Below, piece by piece: positions 8,748 through 24,000 of a stretch of DNA of 24,000 nt (within the stretch, counting starts at the first letter, position 1; every line of letters starts with the position of its first letter). Both the position numbers and the translations under genes were made by a program. The stretch is from NCBI GenBank assembly GCA_036504445.1, contig DASXVE010000025.1, positions 353,955-377,954 of the forward strand, given 5' to 3'. The notes below the pieces were generated by a model, which ran no database searches, was not told the origin of the DNA, and was given only the letters and a program-made list of their open reading frames with translations. The stretch is from Candidatus Aquicultor sp. (lineage in GTDB: Bacteria > Actinomycetota > Aquicultoria > Aquicultorales > Aquicultoraceae).

Positions 8748-9437
8748 TTACTGCTCCTCTCTATAACCGATATCCGAAAGAGGTATCTTATTCCAACCTT
8801 GCATTTTGATATATTTAACCAAGCTTCCTGCATGCCGTGGCGGCTGAAACCAACCGAGGTAAGCAGAATAGCTGTCTTGAGGAACATAATCTAGAGGCAA
8901 TATTGATGGTTTCTCTGCCCTGACCTTATAATCGAGCGCATAGCCCAGCGCCCTAGCGCCCTGGAATTTAGCGTAAATATAGCTATCACATAGATAACCA
9001 TTTCTATAGTCAGCTAATTTGCGTGGTACCAATCGTGGGTTCAAGGGGAAACGCGGGCCCATTGAGTCTTGTGAGTACGGCTCTTCGAAACCAAACGCAC
9101 CGTCTAAGCCGTAACCTCGTTGATCTATAACCGGGATATAAACCTTAAGCAAGCTTCCGTGCTTGGTTTTAATTAAACCCAACTCTGCATCGGGATAATC
9201 CATAGCCCGGTATTTCGCATAATCCCTCTTCAACCCTCTATAAATCCCCCAGATTGGTTTGCCATTGCTCGCTGGAAATGGCAGGTATACCGTGACATTA
9301 CGCAATACTTCGCCTTTCGGGGGCGAGATCGCAAAGTTATAGGTAAAACTCACGTATTGCTTTCTGCCGCAGCCGCTAAGTGGAAAAAGAAGTAGCAGTA
9401 CAATAAGCGCTAAGGTCAACCGTACCCATCGATGCAT
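8748..9437 (-). CDS. Lipoprotein of unknown function
   Basis: The lipobox LLLFPLSG-C follows a basic/hydrophobic signal (MHRWVRLTLALIVLLLL). ATG 9437 has GGAGAA 7 nt upstream, whereas the track start 9485 would overlap the upstream gene by 26 nt. No recognisable domain was found. Confidence 0.7.
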   Translation of the reverse strand: MHRWVRLTLALIVLLLLFPLSGCGRKQYVSFTYNFAISPPKGEVLRNVTVYLPFPASNGKPIWGIYRGLKRDYAKYRAMDYPDAELGLIKTKHGSLLKVYIPVIDQRGYGLDGAFGFEEPYSQDSMGPRFPLNPRLVPRKLADYRNGYLCDSYIYAKFQGARALGYALDYKVRAEKPSILPLDYVPQDSYSAYLGWFQPPRHAGSLVKYIKMQGWNKIPLSDIGYREEQ

Positions 9438-9459
9438 CGGTTGTTCTCCAAGTCGTGAT

Positions 9460-11025
9460 CTATACATCTCCCTTGACCTCCACATCAGCGCTTCCCGTTA
9501 ATGTTGGCATGCCGTTTTCTATCGCAGTAACAACAATCCTATAGCTGCCGTCCGGCGCAACGCGAATGCATCTATCGCCGAACTCAGCTGCAAGCTCCGG
9601 GTCAACCATCTCCGGAAAATCTTTAAGTCCACACCACGTCATGTGATGCTCACCTGCCGGCAAAGACGCCTCCTGGGCTAGCTGCCTAACCACCGTGCCT
9701 TGGTAATCCATAACATCAACGGTAACAGTAGCTGGATTCGCAAGCGTAAAGCTGATAGTTGCACTGCCATTTTTTAGATCATACGGGTTGAAGCGTGGTG
9801 CATTCACAGAAACACCCAAGTTTGAGCTTCGTTGCGGGGTTGAAAAGCAGCACATTTGCGATCTGCTAAGATTCAAAATAACCGAGCCATCCGCAATAGC
9901 TGGAGAAGGGTCTATCAGATACCAGTCAGAATATCGGCCACCGGCTTCATAGCGCCAGGCAAGCTCTCCGGTGTTCTGATCTAGCACATAGAGCCTGCCA
10001 TCGGATGAATCAACGACAGCATCGGTAAACGGACGTGTTGAACCTATGAAAACATAGCCATTTGCAAGCGCTACCGATGCACCACGGTATTTGTTGCGCA
10101 CATCAAATGTCCATTTAACTTCGCCAGTGCCTATATCATAAGCGGTTACCGTACCTGCATATAACGTATTGCGCCCTACTGATAACGATTCAGATGCTCC
10201 ATTTACATCTGCAGTAGTCCTCGACCATTTTATCGCACCGGTATCGGCATCAAGGCAATACATGCCCAAGTTGCCTGCCGTAAAGACCGATGAGCCGGAT
10301 ACAACCGGCATAGAATGCCCTTTCCAGCTATTGAACGACCATTTTATGTGTCCGTCAGCTGCATCAAGTGCAAGCAGCTCACCGCCGCCGACAAACACCG
10401 AGTTATTGGTAAGCGTCGGCGCGGTAAGATATGTTGGGCGCGTGACGACCCAACGAACTTCGCCAGTCATCGCATCAAGGGAGTATACCTTGCTAGCCGA
10501 TGTGCTGAGAACGAGCATATTGCCTAGAACTACTGGTGTTGCCGGCATACCGGCAACAGATGTGCGCCATAGTATGCTTCCATCTACAGCGTTAAGCGCA
10601 TAAACCGATCCATCCGTCGTACCAACATACACATGTCTGTTTGCAAACACCGGCGTACCTGAAAACGGCAGGTTCTTAGCCGTCCAAACAGCCTTGCCGC
10701 TCGCAAGAGAGATTGCCTGAAGCTGGCATTCCGTTTTTATAAGGATACCCCACGCGTAGACGCTCCAGACTTCTCCAACATACACGATGCCATCAGCAAT
10801 AACCGGTCGGGTTCTGCTCTCATCGTACGCGCATTCACCTGGATGCAGCCAGGCAAAATCAAGCGGTGGGGTGATTTTCGTTTCTGCGGAATTATTACCG
10901 GTGTGCCATGAATCGCACTGCGCCATCGGCCAGTTTGAACCGTACGCTGGTTGCACAACACTTATTGCGGTGATGATAACCAAAATATTTAACGCTTTAA
11001 GTAGCCTGCTGAAAATGAGCGACAT
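9460..11025 (-). CDS. Secreted PQQ-like beta-propeller repeat protein with C-terminal FlgD-Ig-like domain
   Basis: After the signal peptide (..VVQPAYG) come six or more repeats of the type YALNAVDGSILW, YSLDAMTGEVRW, LALDAADGHIKW, YCLDADTGAIKW, AYDIGTGEVKW and YVLDQNTGELAW. The C-terminus ..ATISFTLANPATVTVDVMDYQGTVV..HHMTW..DGSYRIVVTA looks FlgD-Ig-like. Confidence 0.85.
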   Translation of the reverse strand: MSLIFSRLLKALNILVIITAISVVQPAYGSNWPMAQCDSWHTGNNSAETKITPPLDFAWLHPGECAYDESRTRPVIADGIVYVGEVWSVYAWGILIKTECQLQAISLASGKAVWTAKNLPFSGTPVFANRHVYVGTTDGSVYALNAVDGSILWRTSVAGMPATPVVLGNMLVLSTSASKVYSLDAMTGEVRWVVTRPTYLTAPTLTNNSVFVGGGELLALDAADGHIKWSFNSWKGHSMPVVSGSSVFTAGNLGMYCLDADTGAIKWSRTTADVNGASESLSVGRNTLYAGTVTAYDIGTGEVKWTFDVRNKYRGASVALANGYVFIGSTRPFTDAVVDSSDGRLYVLDQNTGELAWRYEAGGRYSDWYLIDPSPAIADGSVILNLSRSQMCCFSTPQRSSNLGVSVNAPRFNPYDLKNGSATISFTLANPATVTVDVMDYQGTVVRQLAQEASLPAGEHHMTWCGLKDFPEMVDPELAAEFGDRCIRVAPDGSYRIVVTAIENGMPTLTGSADVEVKGDV

Positions 11026-11096: not shown

Positions 11097-11144
11097 GACC
11101 GAATATTTATTAAGCTAAAGAGGGTGCGTCAAGGATGTGCGCAT

Positions 11145-11172
11145 AAAACAAAAAGCGGCCGAATCGGCCGCC
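11145..11172 (-). terminator. Rho-independent terminator after the chemoreceptor gene
   Basis: On the minus strand, GCGGCCGA-t-TCGGCCGC is followed by TTTTTGTTTT, about 35 nt after the stop at 11206. Confidence 0.8.
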
Positions 11173-16010: not shown

Positions 16011-17444
16011 TTATTGCGGTACTTTGGCCATCAAGTATTCATGAATGGCGTCAGCGGCTTTGCGGCCCGCACCGGCGGCTAAAATTACGGTTGCCGCTCC
16101 GGTGACAATGTCGCCACCGGCAAACACGCCGGGTTTGCTGGTTGCGCCGTTCTCGCCGGCCACGATATAGCCGCGCTTGTTAAGCTCAAGACCGGGTGTC
16201 GACGCTGGAATAATCGGGTTTGACCCGGTACCGATCGACATGATGACAGTATCCACATCGAGCACGAACTCCGACCCCGGAACTTCGACCGGGCGGCGCC
16301 TCCCCGAAGCATCCGGCTCGCCGAGCTCCATCTGGATGCACTTCATGCCTTTAACCCAACCCTCGGCGCCCAGAATCTCAACCGGGTTATTGAGCAGCAA
16401 GAATTCCACGCCTTCTTCGATCGCGTGGTGGACTTCTTCTTTACGCGCCGGAAGTTCTTCCATCGAACGGCGATATACCAGGTAGACCTTCTTGGCGCCG
16501 AGGCGAAGCGCGGTACGCGCCGAATCCATCGCCACGTTTCCGCCGCCGACAACCGCGACATAATCGCCCTTTTTAATCGGCGTATCGTACTCCGGGAAGA
16601 GATACGCTTTCATTAGATTTGTCCTGGTTAGAAACTCGTTTGCCGAGTATACGCCATTTAAATTCTCGCCGGGGATATTCATAAACATCGGTAACCCCGC
16701 ACCACTGCCGATAAAGACCGCGTCATAACCGGCGCCTAAGAGCTCATCAACAGTGTAGAGCTTGCCGACGACCGAGTTAACCTCGATCTCGACACCGAGC
16801 TTCTTAATGCCGTCGACCTCGTGCTGCACGATGGCCTTGGGAAGCCTGAATTCCGGGATGCCGTAGATCAAAACGCCGCCCGCTTTATGCAGCGCTTCAA
16901 AGATTTTTACTTTGTGACCCTTTTTGGCCAAATCGGATGCAACCGTCAAACCGGCCGGGCCGCTGCCGATAACCGCAACCTTATAACCGGTCGGCTCTAC
17001 GTGAGGTGTTTCACCGTTGCCCGCGCCCACGGTGCGTTCCCAGTCCGCTACGTAGCGCTCGAGGCGCCCGATGGCAACCGGCTCGTTTTTCTTGCCGAGC
17101 GTACAGAACTTCTCGCACTGGCTCTCTTGCGGGCACACGCGTCCGCAGATCGCCGGAACGCTCGATTTTTCTTTAATTTTCTTGATTGCCCCGGCAAAGT
17201 CTCCCTCTTTTACCTTGGCTATAAATTCAGGGATAGGAATTTCAACCGGGCAGCCCTCGACACACGGCCGGTTTTTACACTCCATGCAGCGTGCTGCCTC
17301 ACGAAATGCGTCCTCCTCAGAGTAGCCGACCGTAACCTCTTTAAAGTTTCTCCCGCGCTCAACCGGATTTTGCTCGGGCATAGGCGTGCGGGTTTTTCGC
17401 ATCTCTTTTAACTCTTCTTTTGAGTATTCTTTCTTCTCTGCCAT
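16011..17444 (-). CDS. nfnB: NADPH-dependent glutamate synthase beta-chain-like oxidoreductase (NfnB / SudA / GltA-type)
   Basis: The Fe-S motif CMECKNRPCVEGCPV and ..CGRVCP..CE..C are present. FAD and NADPH Rossmann motifs read VAVIGSGPAGLTVASDL and VAVVGGGNVAMDSA. The 477-aa length and pairing with the upstream NfnA-like gene fit this family. Confidence 0.88.
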   Translation of the reverse strand: MAEKKEYSKEELKEMRKTRTPMPEQNPVERGRNFKEVTVGYSEEDAFREAARCMECKNRPCVEGCPVEIPIPEFIAKVKEGDFAGAIKKIKEKSSVPAICGRVCPQESQCEKFCTLGKKNEPVAIGRLERYVADWERTVGAGNGETPHVEPTGYKVAVIGSGPAGLTVASDLAKKGHKVKIFEALHKAGGVLIYGIPEFRLPKAIVQHEVDGIKKLGVEIEVNSVVGKLYTVDELLGAGYDAVFIGSGAGLPMFMNIPGENLNGVYSANEFLTRTNLMKAYLFPEYDTPIKKGDYVAVVGGGNVAMDSARTALRLGAKKVYLVYRRSMEELPARKEEVHHAIEEGVEFLLLNNPVEILGAEGWVKGMKCIQMELGEPDASGRRRPVEVPGSEFVLDVDTVIMSIGTGSNPIIPASTPGLELNKRGYIVAGENGATSKPGVFAGGDIVTGAATVILAAGAGRKAADAIHEYLMAKVPQ

Positions 17445-17462
17445 ATCTCTCCCACCTTTACC

Positions 17463-18302
17463 CTAGCTATGGTGAACGCAGTTGCACTCATGGCGTTCCA
17501 TTGCCTCTTTTTCCTCAGTTAAGTATGTGCGCTGGCGCGACATTAAAAGATCCCAGTCGACCAAATGGCCGTCAAAGTCCGGCCCGTCGGTGCAGCCGAA
17601 CTTGGTTTGCCCACCGACGGAAACACGACAGGCGCCGCACATGCCGGTGCCGTCGACCATAATCGGGTTTAAGCTGACAAACGTTTTCACGTTATAGGGT
17701 TTCGTGGTAAGCGCGACGAACTTCATCATGATTGCCGGCCCGATCGCCATTATAAAATCGGCGCCATTGGTCTCGATTTCTTGCTTGAGGACCTCAGTAA
17801 CCAGGCCTTTGTGCCCCTTACTGCCGTCATCGGTGGAAACGAGAACCTGATCGCTAAACTCAGCGAGTTCATCCTCATAAATTAGAAGATCGGCGGAACG
17901 TGCGCCGATAACTGAAGTTACTGTATTGCCCGCCTCTTTGAGCGCCTTGCCGATCGGATACATCGGAGCGGCACCAAAACCGCCGCCGACCAGCACAACG
18001 CGCCCGTAGTTTTCGATAGGTGTCTGGTGGCCCATCGGGCCGGCGATGTCCGAGAGGCTATCGCCCTCGTTGAGCTCTGAGAACTTTGTCGAGGTTACGC
18101 CGACCGTCTGAACGACTAAACCAAGCGTCCCCTCTTCGGGATTAATGCGGGCCAACGAGAGCGGAATGCGCTCGCCCTCTTCATCGACGCGAACAACTAC
18201 GAATTGCCCAGCCTTGGCTTTTTTGGCAATCTCCGGAGCCGCGACCGTGAAGAAAAACAAATCAGACCGCAGCGCCTGTTTCTTTAAAATCTTATTCGCC
18301 AC
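17463..18302 (-). CDS. nfnA: Sulfide/dihydroorotate dehydrogenase-like FAD/NAD-binding subunit (NfnA / SudB-type) with C-terminal 2Fe-2S motif
   Basis: The sequence shows ..AGQFVVVRVDEEGERIPLSLA.., LVGGGFGAAPM, and C-terminal GTGMCGACRV..C. The product is 279 aa. The GTG start follows GGGAGAGGAG. Confidence 0.88.
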   Translation of the reverse strand: MANKILKKQALRSDLFFFTVAAPEIAKKAKAGQFVVVRVDEEGERIPLSLARINPEEGTLGLVVQTVGVTSTKFSELNEGDSLSDIAGPMGHQTPIENYGRVVLVGGGFGAAPMYPIGKALKEAGNTVTSVIGARSADLLIYEDELAEFSDQVLVSTDDGSKGHKGLVTEVLKQEIETNGADFIMAIGPAIMMKFVALTTKPYNVKTFVSLNPIMVDGTGMCGACRVSVGGQTKFGCTDGPDFDGHLVDWDLLMSRQRTYLTEEKEAMERHECNCVHHS

Positions 18303-18381
18303 TACTGCACTCCTCTCCCTTGTAACACCTAAAATCGCACCATAACAATGTAATTATTGATACAATGTCTATTACCTTTTT

Positions 18382-18410
18382 AGATTAGCCACCACACCAG
18401 TTGTTGTCAA
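18382..18410 (-). promoter_or_regulatory. Candidate promoter for the nfnAB-like operon
   Basis: The minus strand reads TTGACA (18405-18410), a 17-nt spacer, then TAATCT (18382-18387). Confidence 0.4.
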
Positions 18411-18497
18411 GGATTTCTCAAGGTGTAAGCCACTACCTATATAGGATTTAGGCATACACCCCTCATAATGTAAAGAGCGGATAAATGGGATAGCAGG

Positions 18498-19490
18498 CTA
18501 CACTCCGGCGCCCTGCAAAAGCGATTCGGCCTCTTCGGGGGTTTGAACGTCCCACTTGCCGCAGCGGCCGCCCCAACAGGCAATCGCTTTGCCTGCTACC
18601 TGGATTTTTACGATCTCACAGTTGTTCTCGCACCCTTTGCAATGAAAACTTCGCGTCTGGTAATCGATATCGGCGACCTCAAAGCCTTTGAAGTTGGTGG
18701 CTTTATCCCGTACCGATGCCCGTGCCAAGAGGGCGGCGCCGAGCGCGCCCATAACATGATAATGCTTGGGTATTGTGACCTCTGCCTGAAGCGCGTCCTC
18801 GAACGCCTTCTTCATGCCGGCATTTGCCGCGACGCCGCCTTGAAATACGATCGGCGCCAGCAGGTCCTTCCCCTTCGCCAGGTTGTTGAGGTAGTTGCGC
18901 ACCAAGGCCTGGCAGAGGCCGTAAATTATATCTTCCATACGGTAGCCCATTTGCTGTTTGTGAATCATGTCCGACTCGGCAAACACCGAGCAGCGCCCGG
19001 CAATCTGGCACGACGCAGACGATTTAAGAGCATAATCGCCAAACTCCTCGATTGGGATACCGAGGCGGGCTGCCTGGTGATCGAGAAACGAACCGGTTCC
19101 GGCAGCGCAGACGGTGTTCATTGCAAAATCGACGACAATACCGTCGCGCAACAAAATGATCTTCGAATCCTGTCCGCCGATCTCGAGCACCGTTCGCACC
19201 TGCGGTACCACGTGGCTTGCCGCCACCGCGTGCGCCGTGATTTCATTCTTGACGATATCGGCACCGACCATCACTCCGCTCAGATACCGGGCGCTTCCCG
19301 TCGTGCCGACACCGGCTAGCTCGACATCATCGGAGATTTCCAAGGCGAGCTGCCGCATACCGTCTTTTACCGCCACGATCGGCTGGCCTTTCGTTCGGAT
19401 ATAGATATAGTTGACGATGTCACCGCGCTCGTCCGTTACCACCAGATTCGTGCTGACCGAACCGACATCGATCCCCAAGAAACCCCTCAT
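18498..19490 (-). CDS. BadF/BadG/BcrA/BcrD-type ATPase (HgdC-like radical-enzyme activase) with C-terminal Cys-rich extension
   Basis: FLGIDVGSVSTNLVV is the ASKHA phosphate-1 motif. The cluster-bridging cysteines lie in NTVCAAGTG and GRCSVFAES. The extra C-terminal motif reads CKGCENNCEIV..CWGGRCGKW. The RBS is TAGGAGGAAAG. Confidence 0.92.
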   Translation of the reverse strand: MRGFLGIDVGSVSTNLVVTDERGDIVNYIYIRTKGQPIVAVKDGMRQLALEISDDVELAGVGTTGSARYLSGVMVGADIVKNEITAHAVAASHVVPQVRTVLEIGGQDSKIILLRDGIVVDFAMNTVCAAGTGSFLDHQAARLGIPIEEFGDYALKSSASCQIAGRCSVFAESDMIHKQQMGYRMEDIIYGLCQALVRNYLNNLAKGKDLLAPIVFQGGVAANAGMKKAFEDALQAEVTIPKHYHVMGALGAALLARASVRDKATNFKGFEVADIDYQTRSFHCKGCENNCEIVKIQVAGKAIACWGGRCGKWDVQTPEEAESLLQGAGV

Positions 19491-19604
19491 GCGTGCTTTC
19501 CTCCTATATCAACAACAGCGTACACATTAGTTATTAGTTACGCTTACTCGATAAGCTTAAATATATCCGCACCCGCAATTGCCCGCGGGTGTGTTCTCTG
19601 CCAA

Positions 19605-20720
19605 CTACTTGCTCAGCGCAAACTCGGCGGTTGCACCTGTTCTTTTGTGCGTTTTCTTGCTATTGAGCAGATCTAGAAATGCTTCGAGACGCGTCAGCGT
19701 TCCGGCGCGACCGGTTTGCTCGTCGATGACAAAGGATATCGATGGGATGTCAAAATCCCTGCTGACCTGCGGCAGTATCGACTTGGCGATAGTGTCCGGC
19801 ATGCAGGTAAACGGGAAGAGATGCAAAATGCCGTCAAACCCCTCGCACCCGTAAATCACCGAATGGCCAACACTGGGCAAACCTTCGCCGCCGACAAAGT
19901 GATTCAGATACGGTTTTGCCGCCTGTGCGATTTCCTCGTCGGAGATTCCCATAATCGGGTTCTTCGTCGAGGGGCTGATCCAATCGGTGACGTAAACCGA
20001 GCGATCAAGAGATACGCCCATATTGCCAAGCCACTCCTCGACATCGAAATTAATAAACGGCTCGAGCAGGATAAAAAATTCGCCGATTATACCCATCTTT
20101 AAGACGTCGCGCTCCATGTCTTTCTCAACACCTTCGAGTACAGCGAACGCTTCTTCACACACCGCATCGATCTCGGCTTCACTATATGCGGCATCGATTA
20201 TAGCGAGCGCCTTTTTATACGCCCGCGTGCTGTCGCCTTGGTGAAGCTCGTAGCAGCGATATTTAAGCGTGTATTTCTCGAGCTCATCCATCATGCGCGC
20301 CTTTTTAAAGCTGACCCGGACCAGCCGCCAAATCTGGTACACTGATTTTCCCGGTGCAAGTAGCTTCAGCGTATCGACAAAGAGCTTCCACCCGGCGGCC
20401 GGCGGTTCGAGTACGATCATGTCGAATTTATAACCGGCGTCTTCGAGTACGCATCGCTGTATCTCAGCGTAATAACCGAAGCGGCACGGCCCGACGCCGC
20501 CCGCCATAAGCAGTGTATCTGCCCCCTGTTCGAGCGCCTCGATAAAGTTTCCGATCGTGATTTTTAGCGGCAGGCATGCGAACTCAGGAGAGTAACGCAA
20601 TCCGAGCTGTAGCGTCTTTGCGCTGGTTTGCGGGGGCACAATGTAATCGATGCCACTGCGATTAAAGAGATCTGAGAGCACCATATCGAGCTTTCCCATG
20701 CGAGGAAATGTAATCTTCAC
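19605..20720 (-). CDS. Acyl-CoA dehydratase activase-related protein (DUF2229 family), paralogue B
   Basis: (M)KITFPRMGKLDMVLSDLFNRSGIDYIVPP..SPEFACLPLKITIGNFIEAL..GPCRFGYY are family-typical motifs. GTG 20720 lies 8 nt after GGAGG and overlaps the upstream TAG (TAGTG). The track start ATG 20735 is the alternative. Confidence 0.8.
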   Translation of the reverse strand: MKITFPRMGKLDMVLSDLFNRSGIDYIVPPQTSAKTLQLGLRYSPEFACLPLKITIGNFIEALEQGADTLLMAGGVGPCRFGYYAEIQRCVLEDAGYKFDMIVLEPPAAGWKLFVDTLKLLAPGKSVYQIWRLVRVSFKKARMMDELEKYTLKYRCYELHQGDSTRAYKKALAIIDAAYSEAEIDAVCEEAFAVLEGVEKDMERDVLKMGIIGEFFILLEPFINFDVEEWLGNMGVSLDRSVYVTDWISPSTKNPIMGISDEEIAQAAKPYLNHFVGGEGLPSVGHSVIYGCEGFDGILHLFPFTCMPDTIAKSILPQVSRDFDIPSISFVIDEQTGRAGTLTRLEAFLDLLNSKKTHKRTGATAEFALSK

Positions 20721-21670
20721 TACATCGACCTCCATTTAAGCATATCGATAAACGCTTCAACTCGCGTGATGAGACCCGCTTCACCGCTGTGCTCGTCGAC
20801 GACGAGCGACATCAGCGGCGTGCCGCCGTGCTTTTTCGCCTCGGATTCAAGAAGCACCTGGATAAGCGAGTCCGGTCCGCAGGCAAATGAGAGCACGTAG
20901 ATGATACCATCGACGTTCTTCTTATGAATCCAGTGAAGCGCCCCGCCGACCACTTCCTTTTCGTAAGACCAGAACAGGCGCTTCGGCAAGCGATCCGCCT
21001 CGTGCTCGAGAGTTTTCGGCAGGATCATCTCGGTCGTGGTAACGTCGGCACCCCAGCCGCGAAGCTTCTTGATCAGATTCAAACTCGTATACGAGTCGTA
21101 AACGTTATACGGATGCCCGACGACCCCTATTTTTAGCCCCCCTCGAGCGGGTTGCGGCTCGACGCCGGCGATTGCTTCAACCGGGGTAAGCCCCGCTTCG
21201 AGTTTCTTTTGGAACGCCTTTTGCGCGGTGACCCCGTCCATCCAGGCGCGGATTGTCTGGGATTTCTTATTCGTAAAGAACTTGCCGAAATCCAATATTG
21301 CTTGGTAGAACTTACGGGTGCCCAAGCGCGCATTGAATTCCGGCTCTAGTATCAGTGGTAGCGCCGTGTCCGCGGTTTTCGCAAGGTCGGGCAAGCCCAA
21401 AAACTTCGGGCACGTATACGCACCGCTCTCAACACTTATAACCCGTGGGATAAACAGCGCGTCAACGCAATCTTTTACATCGAGGACGTGTCCGAAAAAC
21501 ACCTTAACCGGCAAGCAAAGCTCATTTTCGGCGGCGGCGGTTCCCAAATTAATCGTCTTCTTCGTCGTCGGATTGGACACGGCTATCTCGGCTCCTAAGC
21601 CGTGCAAAAACGATTCCCATAAGGGATAGTACTTGTAATACAACAACGCTTGTGGAACACCTACGGTCAC
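20720..21670 (-). CDS. Acyl-CoA dehydratase activase-related protein (DUF2229 family), paralogue A
   Basis: (M)TVGVPQALLYYKYYPLWESFLHGLGAEIAVSNPTTKK..ENELCLPVKVFFGHV is a family-typical N-terminus. GTG 21670 follows AAGGGTGA. The track start ATG 21748 would add 26 aa with no RBS. Confidence 0.78.
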   Translation of the reverse strand: MTVGVPQALLYYKYYPLWESFLHGLGAEIAVSNPTTKKTINLGTAAAENELCLPVKVFFGHVLDVKDCVDALFIPRVISVESGAYTCPKFLGLPDLAKTADTALPLILEPEFNARLGTRKFYQAILDFGKFFTNKKSQTIRAWMDGVTAQKAFQKKLEAGLTPVEAIAGVEPQPARGGLKIGVVGHPYNVYDSYTSLNLIKKLRGWGADVTTTEMILPKTLEHEADRLPKRLFWSYEKEVVGGALHWIHKKNVDGIIYVLSFACGPDSLIQVLLESEAKKHGGTPLMSLVVDEHSGEAGLITRVEAFIDMLKWRSM

Positions 21671-21983
21671 ACTCACCCTTACGAAACACCCCCATATACT
21701 AAAGGCATGATGCAGCAGGCTCCCCCCCTGAAGAGAAAGCCGCTTCATGCCCGGCTTAGCGATTTTGCAAGCAAACGCCTATTGGGTGATTTGTCCTGAA
21801 CATACCCGCTCTCGATACTTTTAAAACTCGCGTACTATATTTTAAATAGCAACACAACGTATTATCTGGTTATAACCGCTTACCCGGCATTTGAGCGTAC
21901 TTGGCTGAGATCAATGCAGTTGAAATAAGCGCTGAAGCGGCATGCGAAGGTAAGCATGTAATGCAAACTAATGCGTCTATCGT

Positions 21984-22008
21984 AAAAAAAGAGGGAGCGT
22001 TAACTCCC
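21984..22008 (-). terminator. Rho-independent terminator after the small membrane-protein gene
   Basis: On the minus strand, GGGAGT-taac-GCTCCC is followed by TCTTTTTTT, starting 5 nt after the stop at 22013. Confidence 0.75.
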
Positions 22009-22012
22009 TGTA

Positions 22013-22201
22013 TTAGATTAGCCGGGCCAGGTGAAATACCGTCGCCATGAGTGCAAAGAACACCAGTACGTATAGAATGCTTATGAGTGCGTTCGAGAAG
22101 GCAACGATCCCCAGAAGCTGTACTACAACCAGCATGGTGGCAATGGCAAGAACCGCATAAACCAAGCTCCACAACGGGGCACGCTGCATTCTAGCGGCCA
22201 T
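22013..22201 (-). CDS. Small (62 aa) two-helix membrane protein, function unknown
   Basis: ATG 22201 lies 6 nt after AGGAGGTG. The two hydrophobic helices read LWSLVYAVLAIATMLVVVQLLGIVAF and LISILYVLVFFALMATVF. The gene has its own terminator. Confidence 0.6.
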   Translation of the reverse strand: MAARMQRAPLWSLVYAVLAIATMLVVVQLLGIVAFSNALISILYVLVFFALMATVFHLARLI

Positions 22202-22384
22202 TATCGCCACCTCCTTACACAGTATATATACCCACTATTTGCCAACCTCAGCCAATACGAGTGCTCATGCTCTGGCACATGGGTCTATCATACTATTGAT
22301 GTTTCACCTAGACATTAATATTTGCATCCGCATCTCTAATTACGGCGTTCTAGTGCTCTTATTGTGAAATTTGTTTCGCTGGTC

Positions 22385-23137
22385 CTAATATCGTTCTGGA
22401 TAAAACAGATTTCGAACTTCAAATCTTCCCTGGACTAAAAGGGCAAGATCATACATCGCCATATCTTGATCTATTAGCGGTCGTAATGCACGAAGCCTAA
22501 CATAAAGACTCGGATGGCACTTGCTGATCAGCTTTCTTGAACCGCAAAGGCACGGCGTATCTGCTTTAATCGCATCACTCGTTGCGAGAAACTTAACGCT
22601 ACTAATGATCAATGAGTTATCCTCGACTTGAAGTTCTTCACGATAGAATTGCATTGTGCCAATAAATCCATGGCCATACTCACCAGCAGGCCACTTACCG
22701 GTTTTTTCGAAATAGCTCTGCTCGTAAAAAAACCATATTATGAGTTCGTTTAGTAGCGTTTCTATTGTTGTGTTCCTATTACAATAACGCTTTTTTGCTG
22801 CTGCATAGCAAAGGCAGGCCTTGCCTTCACGAAAGTAATGCAGGTTCGCGCTATTGTTTAGTTTCCAGATTTGCATAACTTTCTCTTTGCGACCCCCGAC
22901 CTCATAAACTCCTGGGAGAGCGTAAGGATAATCGTCCGGGAATTCAATTCTTACTCTATACGAATCCTGTATATATAGCCCCTCGACTGTGCCATCAAGG
23001 GGCAGAACGCCGACTAACACTACTCTACCTTGCTCTTCTTGGCAGTAAAGTGTTGGAAATTTTCCCTCGACAAGCGTTCGTTCTGCACGATAGAATTCTT
23101 CCTCACGTTTATACCAGGGTTCCATCTTCAGCTTCAT
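22385..23137 (-). CDS. Stand-alone E2/UBC-like protein with C-terminal SEC-C-type zinc knuckle (CBASS Cap2-like, E2-only)
   Basis: VLVGVLPLDGTVEGLYIQDSYRVRIEFPDDYPYALPGVYEV..NLHYFREGKACLCY follows the UBC pattern (beta-meander, FPxxYPxxxPxV, His, then Gly-x-x-Cys-Leu). CLCGSRKLISKCH (22514-22552) has the spacing of SEC-C motifs. The gene starts 8 nt after the CD-NTase stop. Confidence 0.7.
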   Translation of the reverse strand: MKLKMEPWYKREEEFYRAERTLVEGKFPTLYCQEEQGRVVLVGVLPLDGTVEGLYIQDSYRVRIEFPDDYPYALPGVYEVGGRKEKVMQIWKLNNSANLHYFREGKACLCYAAAKKRYCNRNTTIETLLNELIIWFFYEQSYFEKTGKWPAGEYGHGFIGTMQFYREELQVEDNSLIISSVKFLATSDAIKADTPCLCGSRKLISKCHPSLYVRLRALRPLIDQDMAMYDLALLVQGRFEVRNLFYPERY

Positions 23138-23145
23138 GGTATTTA

Positions 23146-24000
23146 TTACCTACTCTTAAAACCCAAAATTAGCAAGGCCCCACCAAGTAGTGACAATAGT
23201 AAGCCCCACGGCTTTGGTCTGCTTGTACCAGCAACAGGGTATGTAATTCTATTAGACTTCTTATCACCTGGCACTACGAATCTACTGCCGAACACCTTAT
23301 TCCATCCCTTGTATGCTTCAGTGGAATTATCTTGTGTGAGCGCATCATCAGCACGCTCAATAAGCTTTTCGAGCTTTTCTTTGAAGCTCTTCATTTGCGC
23401 CTCAGCGATCCTATCGCTCAAACGCTCTGTCGAGTCTACAGGATTGTAGATTATCTCCGAGAACCGCAGCTGGTTATAGATCGCCTTGACAGTACTCACA
23501 AACGAGACATCATCCCTTGTGGAACTCGAAAAATGATTAGCTGCCAGAACGGTGAGTATTAGACCGGATGGCATTTTGCAGGACTGATCATCAGCCCATG
23601 CTTTTAGGTACCGCACGACTTTCCGTAGCTGATCAGTCTTCGTTTTTACTTCGTCCAGGAACCAATTAGTCAAGGCTCTTGGATCACTCGCTATCCAACC
23701 GACACCTTTGACTGCCAGATATGGAATATCGGCGCACATACAGTAAATTGGCAGATCAACATGATAGTCGCCCTTATAGACAACACGGACGCATTTCTTC
23801 TTATCAACTGGTTTCTCGCTGGTGTGATTCTCAATCGCTTTATAAACCCAGCCATGGACCGTCTCGGACGTTGGCCATTCATTCTGATTATCGGCGAAAT
23901 GTTGCAGGTAGACGCCGTCATCAATATCAAACTCACTATCAATAGGATTAACGATTGTTGACATAGCGTATGATCCCTGGCCATGAAACTTTGGCACTTT
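23146..24000 (-). CDS. cGAS/DncV-like nucleotidyltransferase (CD-NTase, SMODS-type), 5' end off-window, with hydrophobic C-terminal tail
   Basis: The frame is open to the window edge, and the track's M is a GTG one codon from the end. The Pol-beta NTase triad context reads GQGSYAMSTIVNPI..EFDIDDGVYL..RVVYKGDYHVDLPIY. W..SDPRALTNWF and the helical C-domain ..TEAYKGWNKVFGSRF are typical of CD-NTases. The tail reads PKPWGLLLSLLGGALLILGFKSR. Confidence 0.8.
   Translation of the reverse strand, partial: KVPKFHGQGSYAMSTIVNPIDSEFDIDDGVYLQHFADNQNEWPTSETVHGWVYKAIENHTSEKPVDKKKCVRVVYKGDYHVDLPIYCMCADIPYLAVKGVGWIASDPRALTNWFLDEVKTKTDQLRKVVRYLKAWADDQSCKMPSGLILTVLAANHFSSSTRDDVSFVSTVKAIYNQLRFSEIIYNPVDSTERLSDRIAEAQMKSFKEKLEKLIERADDALTQDNSTEAYKGWNKVFGSRFVVPGDKKSNRITYPVAGTSRPKPWGLLLSLLGGALLILGFKSR

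Follow-up and report, generated by a model that had tools for sequence, protein, structure and literature searches.

The question raised by the far end of this stretch of Candidatus Aquicultor sp. DNA (24,000 nucleotides of contig DASXVE010000025.1, referred to here as the window) is what system is formed by two adjacent genes on the reverse strand, one coding for a nucleotidyltransferase of the cGAS/DncV-like kind (CD-NTase) and the other for a stand-alone E2-like protein. An initial annotation of the window had read the pair as a rare, E2-only form of the antiphage signalling system that is based on cyclic oligonucleotides (CBASS) with no effector in view, and had proposed that either the effector sits upstream, past position 24000, or the module is a minimal or non-canonical variant. 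Our results point to the first alternative, since the window very probably ends in a horizontally acquired, low-GC, three-gene E2-type CBASS anti-phage operon, composed of an effector with three transmembrane segments (3-TM), a CdnB-like cyclase and a long E2. The features of the two window genes are the following:

Positions 23146 to 24000, reverse strand: CD-NTase (cGAS/DncV-like cyclase), residues 47-330 of 330 and the stop codon.
Positions 23917 to 23982, reverse strand: catalytic nucleotidyltransferase (NTase) motifs GQGS (G53-S56) and DIDD (D71, D73), read from the sequence.
Positions 23203 to 23217, reverse strand: PKPWG tag (P308-G312) at the C-terminus of the cyclase, the predicted site of E2 recognition and of cleavage and ligation.
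Positions 23149 to 23202, reverse strand: 18-residue C-terminal tail of the cyclase, LLLSLLGGALLILGFKSR, which follows G312 and is as hydrophobic as a transmembrane (TM) segment.
Positions 22385 to 23137, reverse strand: stand-alone long-form E2 of 250 aa, with a core like that of ubiquitin-conjugating (UBC) enzymes and then a helical C-terminal region.
Positions 22670 to 22840, reverse strand: predicted active-site residues of the E2, H100 (22838-22840), C108 (22814-22816) and H156 (22670-22672).
Positions 22511 to 22552, reverse strand: SEC-C-like zinc knuckle C196-x-C198-GS...C207-H208-P209 in the C-terminal region of the E2.

Both genes lie where the initial annotation had placed them, and the motif content of their open reading frames (ORFs) goes far beyond a chance match. 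The ORF of the cyclase, with its stop codon at 23146-23148, runs off the window at 24000, and the first 46 residues of the protein fall past that end. An exact look-up of the E2 protein found the parent contig, JGI 3300035523 Ga0376481_000040 (411 kb, numbered L001 in our set of related loci), as well as L002, a Logan contig of 7.7 kb; NCBI attributes the E2 protein to a metagenome-assembled genome of Candidatus Aquicultor sp., in the Actinomycetota. From position 9138 of L001 onward, the contig matches the window in reverse complement with 0 mismatches in 11,616 nt, and the full-length cyclase of 330 aa is coded by L001 9000-9992. The residues pointed out earlier were correctly numbered: D24 and D26, counted from a GTG at 23997, are D71 and D73 of the full-length cyclase, and C108 is the cysteine of the E2. 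The motifs GQGS (23971-23982), DIDD (23917-23928), HVDLP (23749-23763) and SDP (23680-23688) are all on the reverse strand; D128 of HVDLP is the third acidic residue, which makes the pol-beta NTase catalytic triad complete (GS motif, D71/D73 and D128) inside the match to the DncV-like_NTFase hidden Markov model (HMM).

Profile searches put the assignment of the cyclase beyond doubt. Its fragment in the window matches the Pfam families DncV-like_NTFase (PF21654, 3.8e-25) and DncV_C (PF21713, 3.9e-10), and the full-length protein scores above the gathering thresholds, given here in brackets, of PF21654 with 88.7 (24.9), of SMODS (PF18144) with 53.8 (26.5) and of PF21713 with 39.8 (28.4) bits. 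The PADLOC Cyclase model PDLC00774 matches the fragment at 3.8e-95 and the full-length protein at 9.2e-113, the best of more than 40 PADLOC cyclase models with a match. With the NCBIfam equivalog NF041078, 'CBASS cGAMP synthase', whose curated cut-off is 150 bits, the fragment reaches 224 and the whole protein 254.5 bits, and the cyclic GMP-AMP (cGAMP) label of the window cyclase comes solely from this model. Among solved structures, the nearest is that of CdnB from Bacteroides fragilis (BfCdnB; 7LJO, 5.6e-46), a member of clade B04 (PMC10442399). The window cyclase is accordingly assigned by its sequence to the CdnB-like CD-NTases of the 'CBASS cGAMP synthase' family.

The ORF of the E2 begins 8 nt past the CD-NTase stop and contains IEFPDDYPYALPGVYEV and GKACLC. 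The PADLOC CBASS E2 models PDLC00865/872/871 match it at ~1e-40 over nearly its whole length. An AlphaFold2 (AF2) model built with 24 homologues, with a predicted local distance difference test score (pLDDT) of 92.4 and a predicted template modelling score of 0.84, has a helix (H13-26), four strands and further helices in the order of UBC enzymes. In a Foldseek search of the PDB with this model, 29 of the first 30 matches were UBC or ubiquitin E2 variant (UEV) folds (TSG101 UEV, Cdc34, UFC1), with probabilities of 0.96-1.00 and template modelling scores, TM(target), up to 0.60, and the protein is modelled as having a UBC/E2 fold. C108 and H156 do not vary among the 24 homologues, and conservation is at least 90% for H100 and for C196, C198 and C207 of the knuckle; in the 7 closest homologues C196/C198/C207/H208 are invariant. 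The family profile also matches zinc-binding peptides of SecA (1OZB_I 6e-4, 1TM6 1.2e-3, 1SX0 2.8e-3), and the C-terminal region carries a SEC-C-like motif, C196-L-C198-G-S...C207-H208, predicted to be a metal-binding knuckle. No ThiF/E1 or JAB domain was found by Pfam in either window protein, as the initial annotation had said, and none is coded within 10 kb on L001. The locus reads as a CD-NTase followed by an E2-only Cap2-like gene, which together form an E2-CBASS (type II 'short') module truncated where the window ends.

Extension of the contig past position 24000 revealed the missing gene. On L001, an ORF of 194 aa with three TM segments lies 18 nt upstream of the cyclase, and clpB precedes it, so that the operon runs from the 3-TM protein (194 aa) to the CD-NTase (330 aa) and the long E2 (250 aa), with all ORFs intact. 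Tabulation of the HMM matches found the same layout of 3-TM protein, CdnB-like cyclase and long E2 in six loci (L001, L007, L008, L023, L029, L030) from three lineages, namely metagenome-assembled genomes of Actinomycetota, Deltaproteobacteria and Syntrophales, and a CD-NTase lies directly 5' of the long E2 in every related locus read. Of the two alternatives proposed for the absent effector, an upstream position held, while a minimal or non-canonical variant did not. The description of the architecture as rare had to be abandoned as well: E2-only operons account for 616 of more than 5,000 CBASS operons (bioRxiv 10.1101/2022.05.25.493364), and an exhaustive search with HMMER found 2,516 cluster representatives (50% identity) of the long-E2 family at E<=1e-3 and 1,886 at E<=1e-10. 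Both window genes, the long E2 included, are already covered by HMMs of PADLOC. E2-only CBASS is common, and the locus is a further example of a catalogued system type that is neither minimal nor non-canonical.

Homologues of the 3-TM protein form at least 60 clusters, all unannotated and with no Pfam domains, in which a strongly conserved signature, LLNERYNASHKMRERS, is followed by three TM segments. Those that were looked up all lie directly 5' of a CD-NTase in four-gene type II CBASS operons (L012-16, L017, L019-20 and L021), where the gene order is 3-TM protein, CD-NTase, Prok-E2_B plus ThiF (Cap2) and Prok-JAB (Cap3). In the long-E2 relatives, the slot upstream of the cyclase holds either a 3-TM homologue (L007, L008) or a TIR-SAVED protein (L003-L006). 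TIR-SAVED proteins are classical CBASS effectors. Counting both operon types, at least 13 CBASS operons have a member of the 3-TM family as the gene in the effector slot. An effector upstream of 24000 is supported because 3-TM homologues hold the effector slot of type II operons and TIR-SAVED stands there in an E2-only relative, and the upstream 3-TM gene is taken to be the effector of this operon, with a predicted activity. Its place agrees with that of the effector in canonical type II CBASS, such as capV-dncV-cap2-cap3 of V. cholerae, which is also upstream of the cyclase.

As a small inner-membrane protein in the effector slot of CBASS, the 3-TM protein resembles Cap13-Cap16 and the SLATT, S-4TM and SUa-2TM families, and TM effectors of CBASS are presumed to disrupt the membrane by oligomerisation (review PMC10419184). 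Unlike these, it has its own signature and no significant HMM match to any of them. When 39 members were scanned by HMM search, none fell below E 1e-3 against SLATT_1-6, SUa-2TM, S-4TM, S-2TMbeta, Saf-2TM or the PADLOC 2TM/4TM models, and the best sub-threshold matches (SLATT_5 with E 0.066, PADLOC '2TM' with 0.083 and RTasSLATT with 0.0025) each came from 1-3 of the 39. An AF2 model of the effector is all-helical (pLDDT 84.8), and Foldseek gave only non-specific long-helix PDB matches for it (E >=0.47). The effector slot of more distant long-E2 operons holds proteins of 161-180 aa (L036 3484-3969, L037 3448-3990, L035 2791-3312) that have one TM segment, at the N-terminus, as well as a soluble domain; those of L036 and L037 are visibly alike (e.g. 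L..I.GYS.H..CNTP.RL.SDV.A.M.T.PE), there is no Pfam match on record, and they may represent another uncatalogued effector family. On the Ratteibacteria-type contigs L012-L016, a restriction-modification pair (N6_N4_Mtase and MvaI_BcnI, 8920-10508) directly follows the E1E2/JAB operon with the 3-TM effector, and the two make up a small defence island.

The window effector and cyclase are like those of the type II operons L012-L021, with the same 3-TM effector family and cyclases 47-55% identical, and they appear to be the same cassette as in the Cap2(E1-E2)/Cap3(JAB) operons, in which the regulator has been swapped to an E2-only one and the cyclase tag has changed too. Unlike canonical type II CBASS, the window locus has no ThiF/E1 domain and no JAB gene, both of which are present in L012-L021, its E2 is from a different family, and its cyclase ends in PKPWG and a tail instead of a free ...DD[SAH][RK]SA. 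All ten cyclases that stand beside a long E2 end in [KQR][PA][WY][GAST] and 1-25 further residues; the fourth position of the tag is occupied five times by Gly, three times by Ala and once each by Ser and Thr. Examples, with a slash after the tag, are PKPWG/LLLSLLGGALLILGFKSR in the window, PKPWG/NQ, PKPWS/AE, AKPWA/K, QPWA/C and PRAYG/ATSGQINL. The 8 homologous cyclases encoded in E1E2/JAB operons lack the tag without exception, and all 8 end in ...DD[SAH][RK]SA. The window cyclase, 47-55% identical to the E1E2/JAB cyclases that share its effector, is only 23% identical to the L003 cyclase. Cyclase C-termini sort by regulator type and not by relatedness of the cyclases. One E1E2/JAB-type cyclase (L024 2516-3493) ends in ...DDARSA-RDTT, four residues past the usual terminal Ala; this extension could be an artefact of the ORF end or a case in which trimming has to come before activation by E1.

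The Serratia marcescens E2-CBASS (SmCdnG and SmE2; Yan et al.) offers the closest characterised model for such a module; it too has a CD-NTase with a stand-alone E2 behind it and lacks both E1 and JAB. In Serratia, cleavage by the E2 takes place after Y405-G406 of the cGAS and removes E407 or even a fused maltose-binding protein, and the G406-C101 thioester interconverts with a G406-K159 isopeptide (bioRxiv 10.1101/2022.05.25.493364). H87 is required and H152 acts as a pH sensor, the pattern H87/C101/H152 being needed for cleavage, thioester formation and bond interconversion (same preprint). A catalytic Cys with two conserved His has been reported as specific to the E2s of E2-CBASS. Judged by the His...Cys...His pattern, C108, H100 and H156 of the long E2 would be the counterparts of C101, H87 and H152 of the Serratia E2. 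Both cyclases have an aromatic-Gly pair with further residues behind it, Y405-G406/E407 in Serratia and W311-G312 followed by 18 residues here; the 18 residues would be removable by the same analogy, and G312 is the predicted acyl donor for the E2.

By this analogy, the E2 would recognise the PKPWG tag of the cyclase, C108 together with H100 would cleave after G312 and release the 18-residue hydrophobic tail, and the E2 would hold the cyclase as a thioester or isopeptide adduct, through which the cyclase would be primed or regulated. On phage infection the cyclase would then make a cyclic (di)nucleotide, presumably of the cGAMP type in view of its NCBIfam family, and the nucleotide would activate the 3-TM protein encoded in the same operon, with disruption of the inner membrane and abortion of the infection as the predicted outcome.

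The two systems are also different in several respects. The Serratia E2 has ~160 aa, whereas that of the window has 250, a SEC-C-like zinc knuckle and extra helices. The Serratia cyclase belongs to clade G, which makes up 73.65% of E2-CBASS cyclases (PMC12948482), while that of the window is CdnB-like (7LJO). The leaving peptide would be 18 hydrophobic residues instead of a single Glu. A Lactococcus plasmid CBASS of type II, listed as new in Lactococcus, has a SUa-2TM effector, a SMODS cyclase and an E2 of 155 aa (NAR 2024, PMC11381338). It is similar to the window operon in having three genes, for a TM effector, a cyclase and an E2-only regulator in that order, and differs from it in its short E2 and in a cyclase closest to CdnG (7LJN); SUa-2TM was not among the 25 most frequent Pfam families of the 39 homologues of the window effector that were scanned.

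Several observations weigh against this picture of the operon. The Foldseek E-values for UBC folds were weak (best 3.7e-3, range 4e-3 to 2e-2), the E2 stayed below the Pfam UQ_con threshold (14.9 bits against 27; E 0.02), and an hhalign comparison of the long-E2 family with a Cap2 E2 domain was non-significant. The characterised Serratia E2 belongs to a different E2 subfamily, and it and the long E2 do not find each other by sequence; neither SmE2 nor Cap2 was retrieved by PDB sequence and profile searches with the long E2. The C-terminus of CdnG recruits its E2 through a ubiquitin-like motif of ~47 residues, made of an alpha-helix plus a beta-sheet of three strands (Xiao et al., mLife 2026, PMC12948482), and there is no room for such a motif here. 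Because only ~20 residues separate the end of DncV_C (aa 287) from PKPWG (aa 308), recognition by the E2 would have to rest on a short linear tag. Ser in L008 and Thr in L030 stand where Gly or Ala is expected, which means that the predicted cleavage residue is not strictly conserved. Finally, neither a nucleotide-sensor domain (SAVED, beta-barrel or NUDIX) nor a significant match in Pfam, PADLOC or the PDB could be recognised for the 3-TM effector.

The E2 could act mainly as a negative regulator or chaperone, one that sequesters the cyclase or targets another protein, without priming it by cleavage and ligation at G312. The role of conjugation does vary among the CBASS studied, and in B. cereus conjugation to PspA has been proposed to keep the cyclase inactive; the long-E2 subfamily is itself uncharacterised, and the Ser and Thr variants at the predicted cleavage position would fit such a role. 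On the other hand, the combination of Cys/His/His with an aromatic-Gly tag and extra residues closely parallels Serratia, where cleavage and ligation were demonstrated, and we consider a mainly negative role improbable, together with the reading of the hydrophobic tail as a degron or as an element for E2 binding instead of a membrane anchor.

The Kyte-Doolittle mean of the tail over 15 aa is 2.50 in the window cyclase and 2.44 in the L007 orthologue, both above the maximum of 1.97 among 3,975 windows of ten soluble proteins of the same contig. A hydrophobic tail is found only in L001/L002 and L007, and since the tails of L001 and L007 differ in sequence and are both hydrophobic, this suggests, speculatively, selection for hydrophobicity as such, for instance as a tail anchor or as a masking propeptide that the E2 would remove. 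One rather unlikely, although conceivable, extension is that the cyclase is a tail-anchored or hydrophobically masked pro-enzyme, and that the E2 cut between W311-G312 and LLLSLLGGALLILGFKSR both primes the cyclase and frees it from the membrane where the 3-TM effector resides. If true, this would add a localisation switch to E2-CBASS regulation, and the tail would be removed by an uncharacterised long-E2 subfamily with a SEC-C knuckle, with a signal that passes to an effector without a known nucleotide-sensor domain. Of all the details of the locus, only this hydrophobic leaving peptide is out of the ordinary, and unless anchoring of the cyclase can be shown it amounts to a minor curiosity.

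The composition of the DNA around the operon bears on its origin and on its limits. The three cassette genes have a GC content of 41.7-43.8%, and genes and spacers together 37-44%, in an islet (L001 8115-10927; window ~22211-24000 and beyond) that lies between clpB (56.5%) and DUF2229/BcrAD genes (52-57%). Because the flanking host genes have 52-57%, the CBASS genes can be taken for a small horizontally acquired islet. No flanking direct or inverted (att-like) repeats were found around it, and scans of viral contigs for the E2 and the effector were negative, so that nothing points to carriage by phages. The spacer between clpB and the 3-TM gene contains a promoter-like site, upstream of the effector gene, and two further features mark the other end:

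Positions 22211 to 22384, no strand: low-GC (41.4%) non-coding spacer, the distal end of the acquired cassette.
Positions 21982 to 22009, reverse strand: terminator-like hairpin (21992-22009) with a T-run to 21982, the first 3' of the E2 gene, identified as a consensus match only; on L001 the same hairpin is at 11129-11146, with a T tail.

Between the E2 gene and this hairpin, on the same strand, lies an ORF of 65 aa with two TM segments (window 22013-22210, reverse strand), and it might be asked whether it is the effector, or a fourth component, instead of or besides the upstream 3-TM gene. It is strongly hydrophobic, and two pipelines predicted a gene there; nothing else stands downstream before the hairpin, which bears out the initial view that no recognisable effector is found on that side. 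However, its GC content is 52%, like that of the host flanks and against 42-44% for the cassette, it has no Pfam or PADLOC match, and it is not conserved, L008 having an unrelated ATP-cone protein 3' of the E2 and other loci having different genes or none. The upstream 3-TM gene, in contrast, is conserved across both operon types. A role of the 65-aa ORF in the system is in our view very unlikely, and we did not count it as a component on account of its host-like GC and lack of conservation beside long-E2 genes; it could code for a small membrane protein of the host, or be no gene at all.

It could also be argued that the locus is the decayed remnant of a type II CBASS, in which Cap2 has lost its E1 (ThiF) part, Cap3 has been deleted and a non-functional E2 stub has been left, and the identity of 47-55% of the cyclase and effector to those of full E1E2/JAB operons speaks for such a remnant. 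The E2, though, is not a fragment of Cap2. It belongs to the large stand-alone family described above, with members mostly of 210-260 aa, with its own invariant residues and SEC-C knuckle, and with the non-significant hhalign result against Cap2. Furthermore, the end of the cyclase has switched from ...DDxRSA to a PKPWG tag specific to the long-E2 family, the ORFs are all intact and the architecture recurs in six loci, so decay has very little to recommend it. That the NTase is a non-signalling enzyme (an MNT/KNT-type antitoxin or CCA-adding-like), paired with a UBC-like gene unrelated to cyclic-nucleotide immunity, has next to no chance of being right, as it shares with the cyclase only the generic pol-beta GS/DxD/D triad, found no support, and is refuted, as far as sequence evidence goes, by the profile searches, the nearest structure (BfCdnB) and a neighbourhood that is CBASS-typical in all related loci.

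A three-gene E2-type CBASS operon remains the best reading of the locus, and its relatives show some variation. The most distant homologue of the long E2, P0083 (L038 4094-8063, L039), follows a 242-aa NTase-like protein with the motifs FHLDTLP and SNPRGFAAWF, with no SMODS match and no PW[GA] tag, and a reverse transcriptase gene (RVT_N and RVT_1) lies ~1.2 kb downstream. In one E2-only lineage, a soluble Cys-rich protein of 142-147 aa (CxxC...C...C...H; L010 1532-1960, L011 1278-1721), with no Pfam match, overlaps the 3' end of the E2 gene. A gene for a LexA-like repressor (LexA_DNA_bind and Peptidase_S24) is found directly upstream of the long-E2 operon in L003 (851-1468), L004 (1794-2411) and L006 (481-1098), and, in L037 (2725-3333), at most ~120 nt away from the putative effector gene; in L036 (2313-2966, reverse strand), a Peptidase_S24 gene lies ~500 nt upstream on the opposite strand. 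L001 has no LexA-like gene, and L021 has an HTH_3 gene at the equivalent position. These neighbours hint at a transcription of such long-E2 CBASS operons that may respond to DNA damage. Scans with the E2 pattern added little to this set, with 45 stretches matched and 0 true relatives among the GTDB genomes and, in metagenomes, only L035 besides duplicates of known contigs (L032-L034).

In the window, an unrelated operon adjoins the islet (18498-21748, reverse strand), with two DUF2229/HGD-D-like genes and a BcrAD_BadFG activase of the 2-hydroxyacyl-CoA dehydratase-activator type. Farther from the islet, at 16011-18302, are genes with DHODB_Fe-S_bind/NAD_binding_1 and Pyr_redox_2/Fer4_20 domains. 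By their domains, these neighbouring genes (16011-21748) look like ordinary anaerobe metabolism. An Rfam scan of the window gave 0 matches.

Examination of this locus indicates that one effector and cyclase cassette can pair with either E1E2/JAB or a long E2, and that the last 5-25 residues of the cyclase switch with the regulator. The tag swap is evidence of a compact, comparative kind for the C-terminal tag as the element that links cyclase and regulator. The long E2 with its SEC-C-like knuckle is represented by ~2,500 clusters, yet the PDB and the literature searched hold no solved structure and no experimental study of this subfamily, and the 3-TM effector family, with at least 60 clusters and no Pfam or PADLOC model or known sensor domain, is an uncatalogued lead. 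Though the system type itself is already catalogued, the joint swap of tag and regulator, the long E2 with the SEC-C knuckle and the 3-TM effector family are leads worth modest follow-up.

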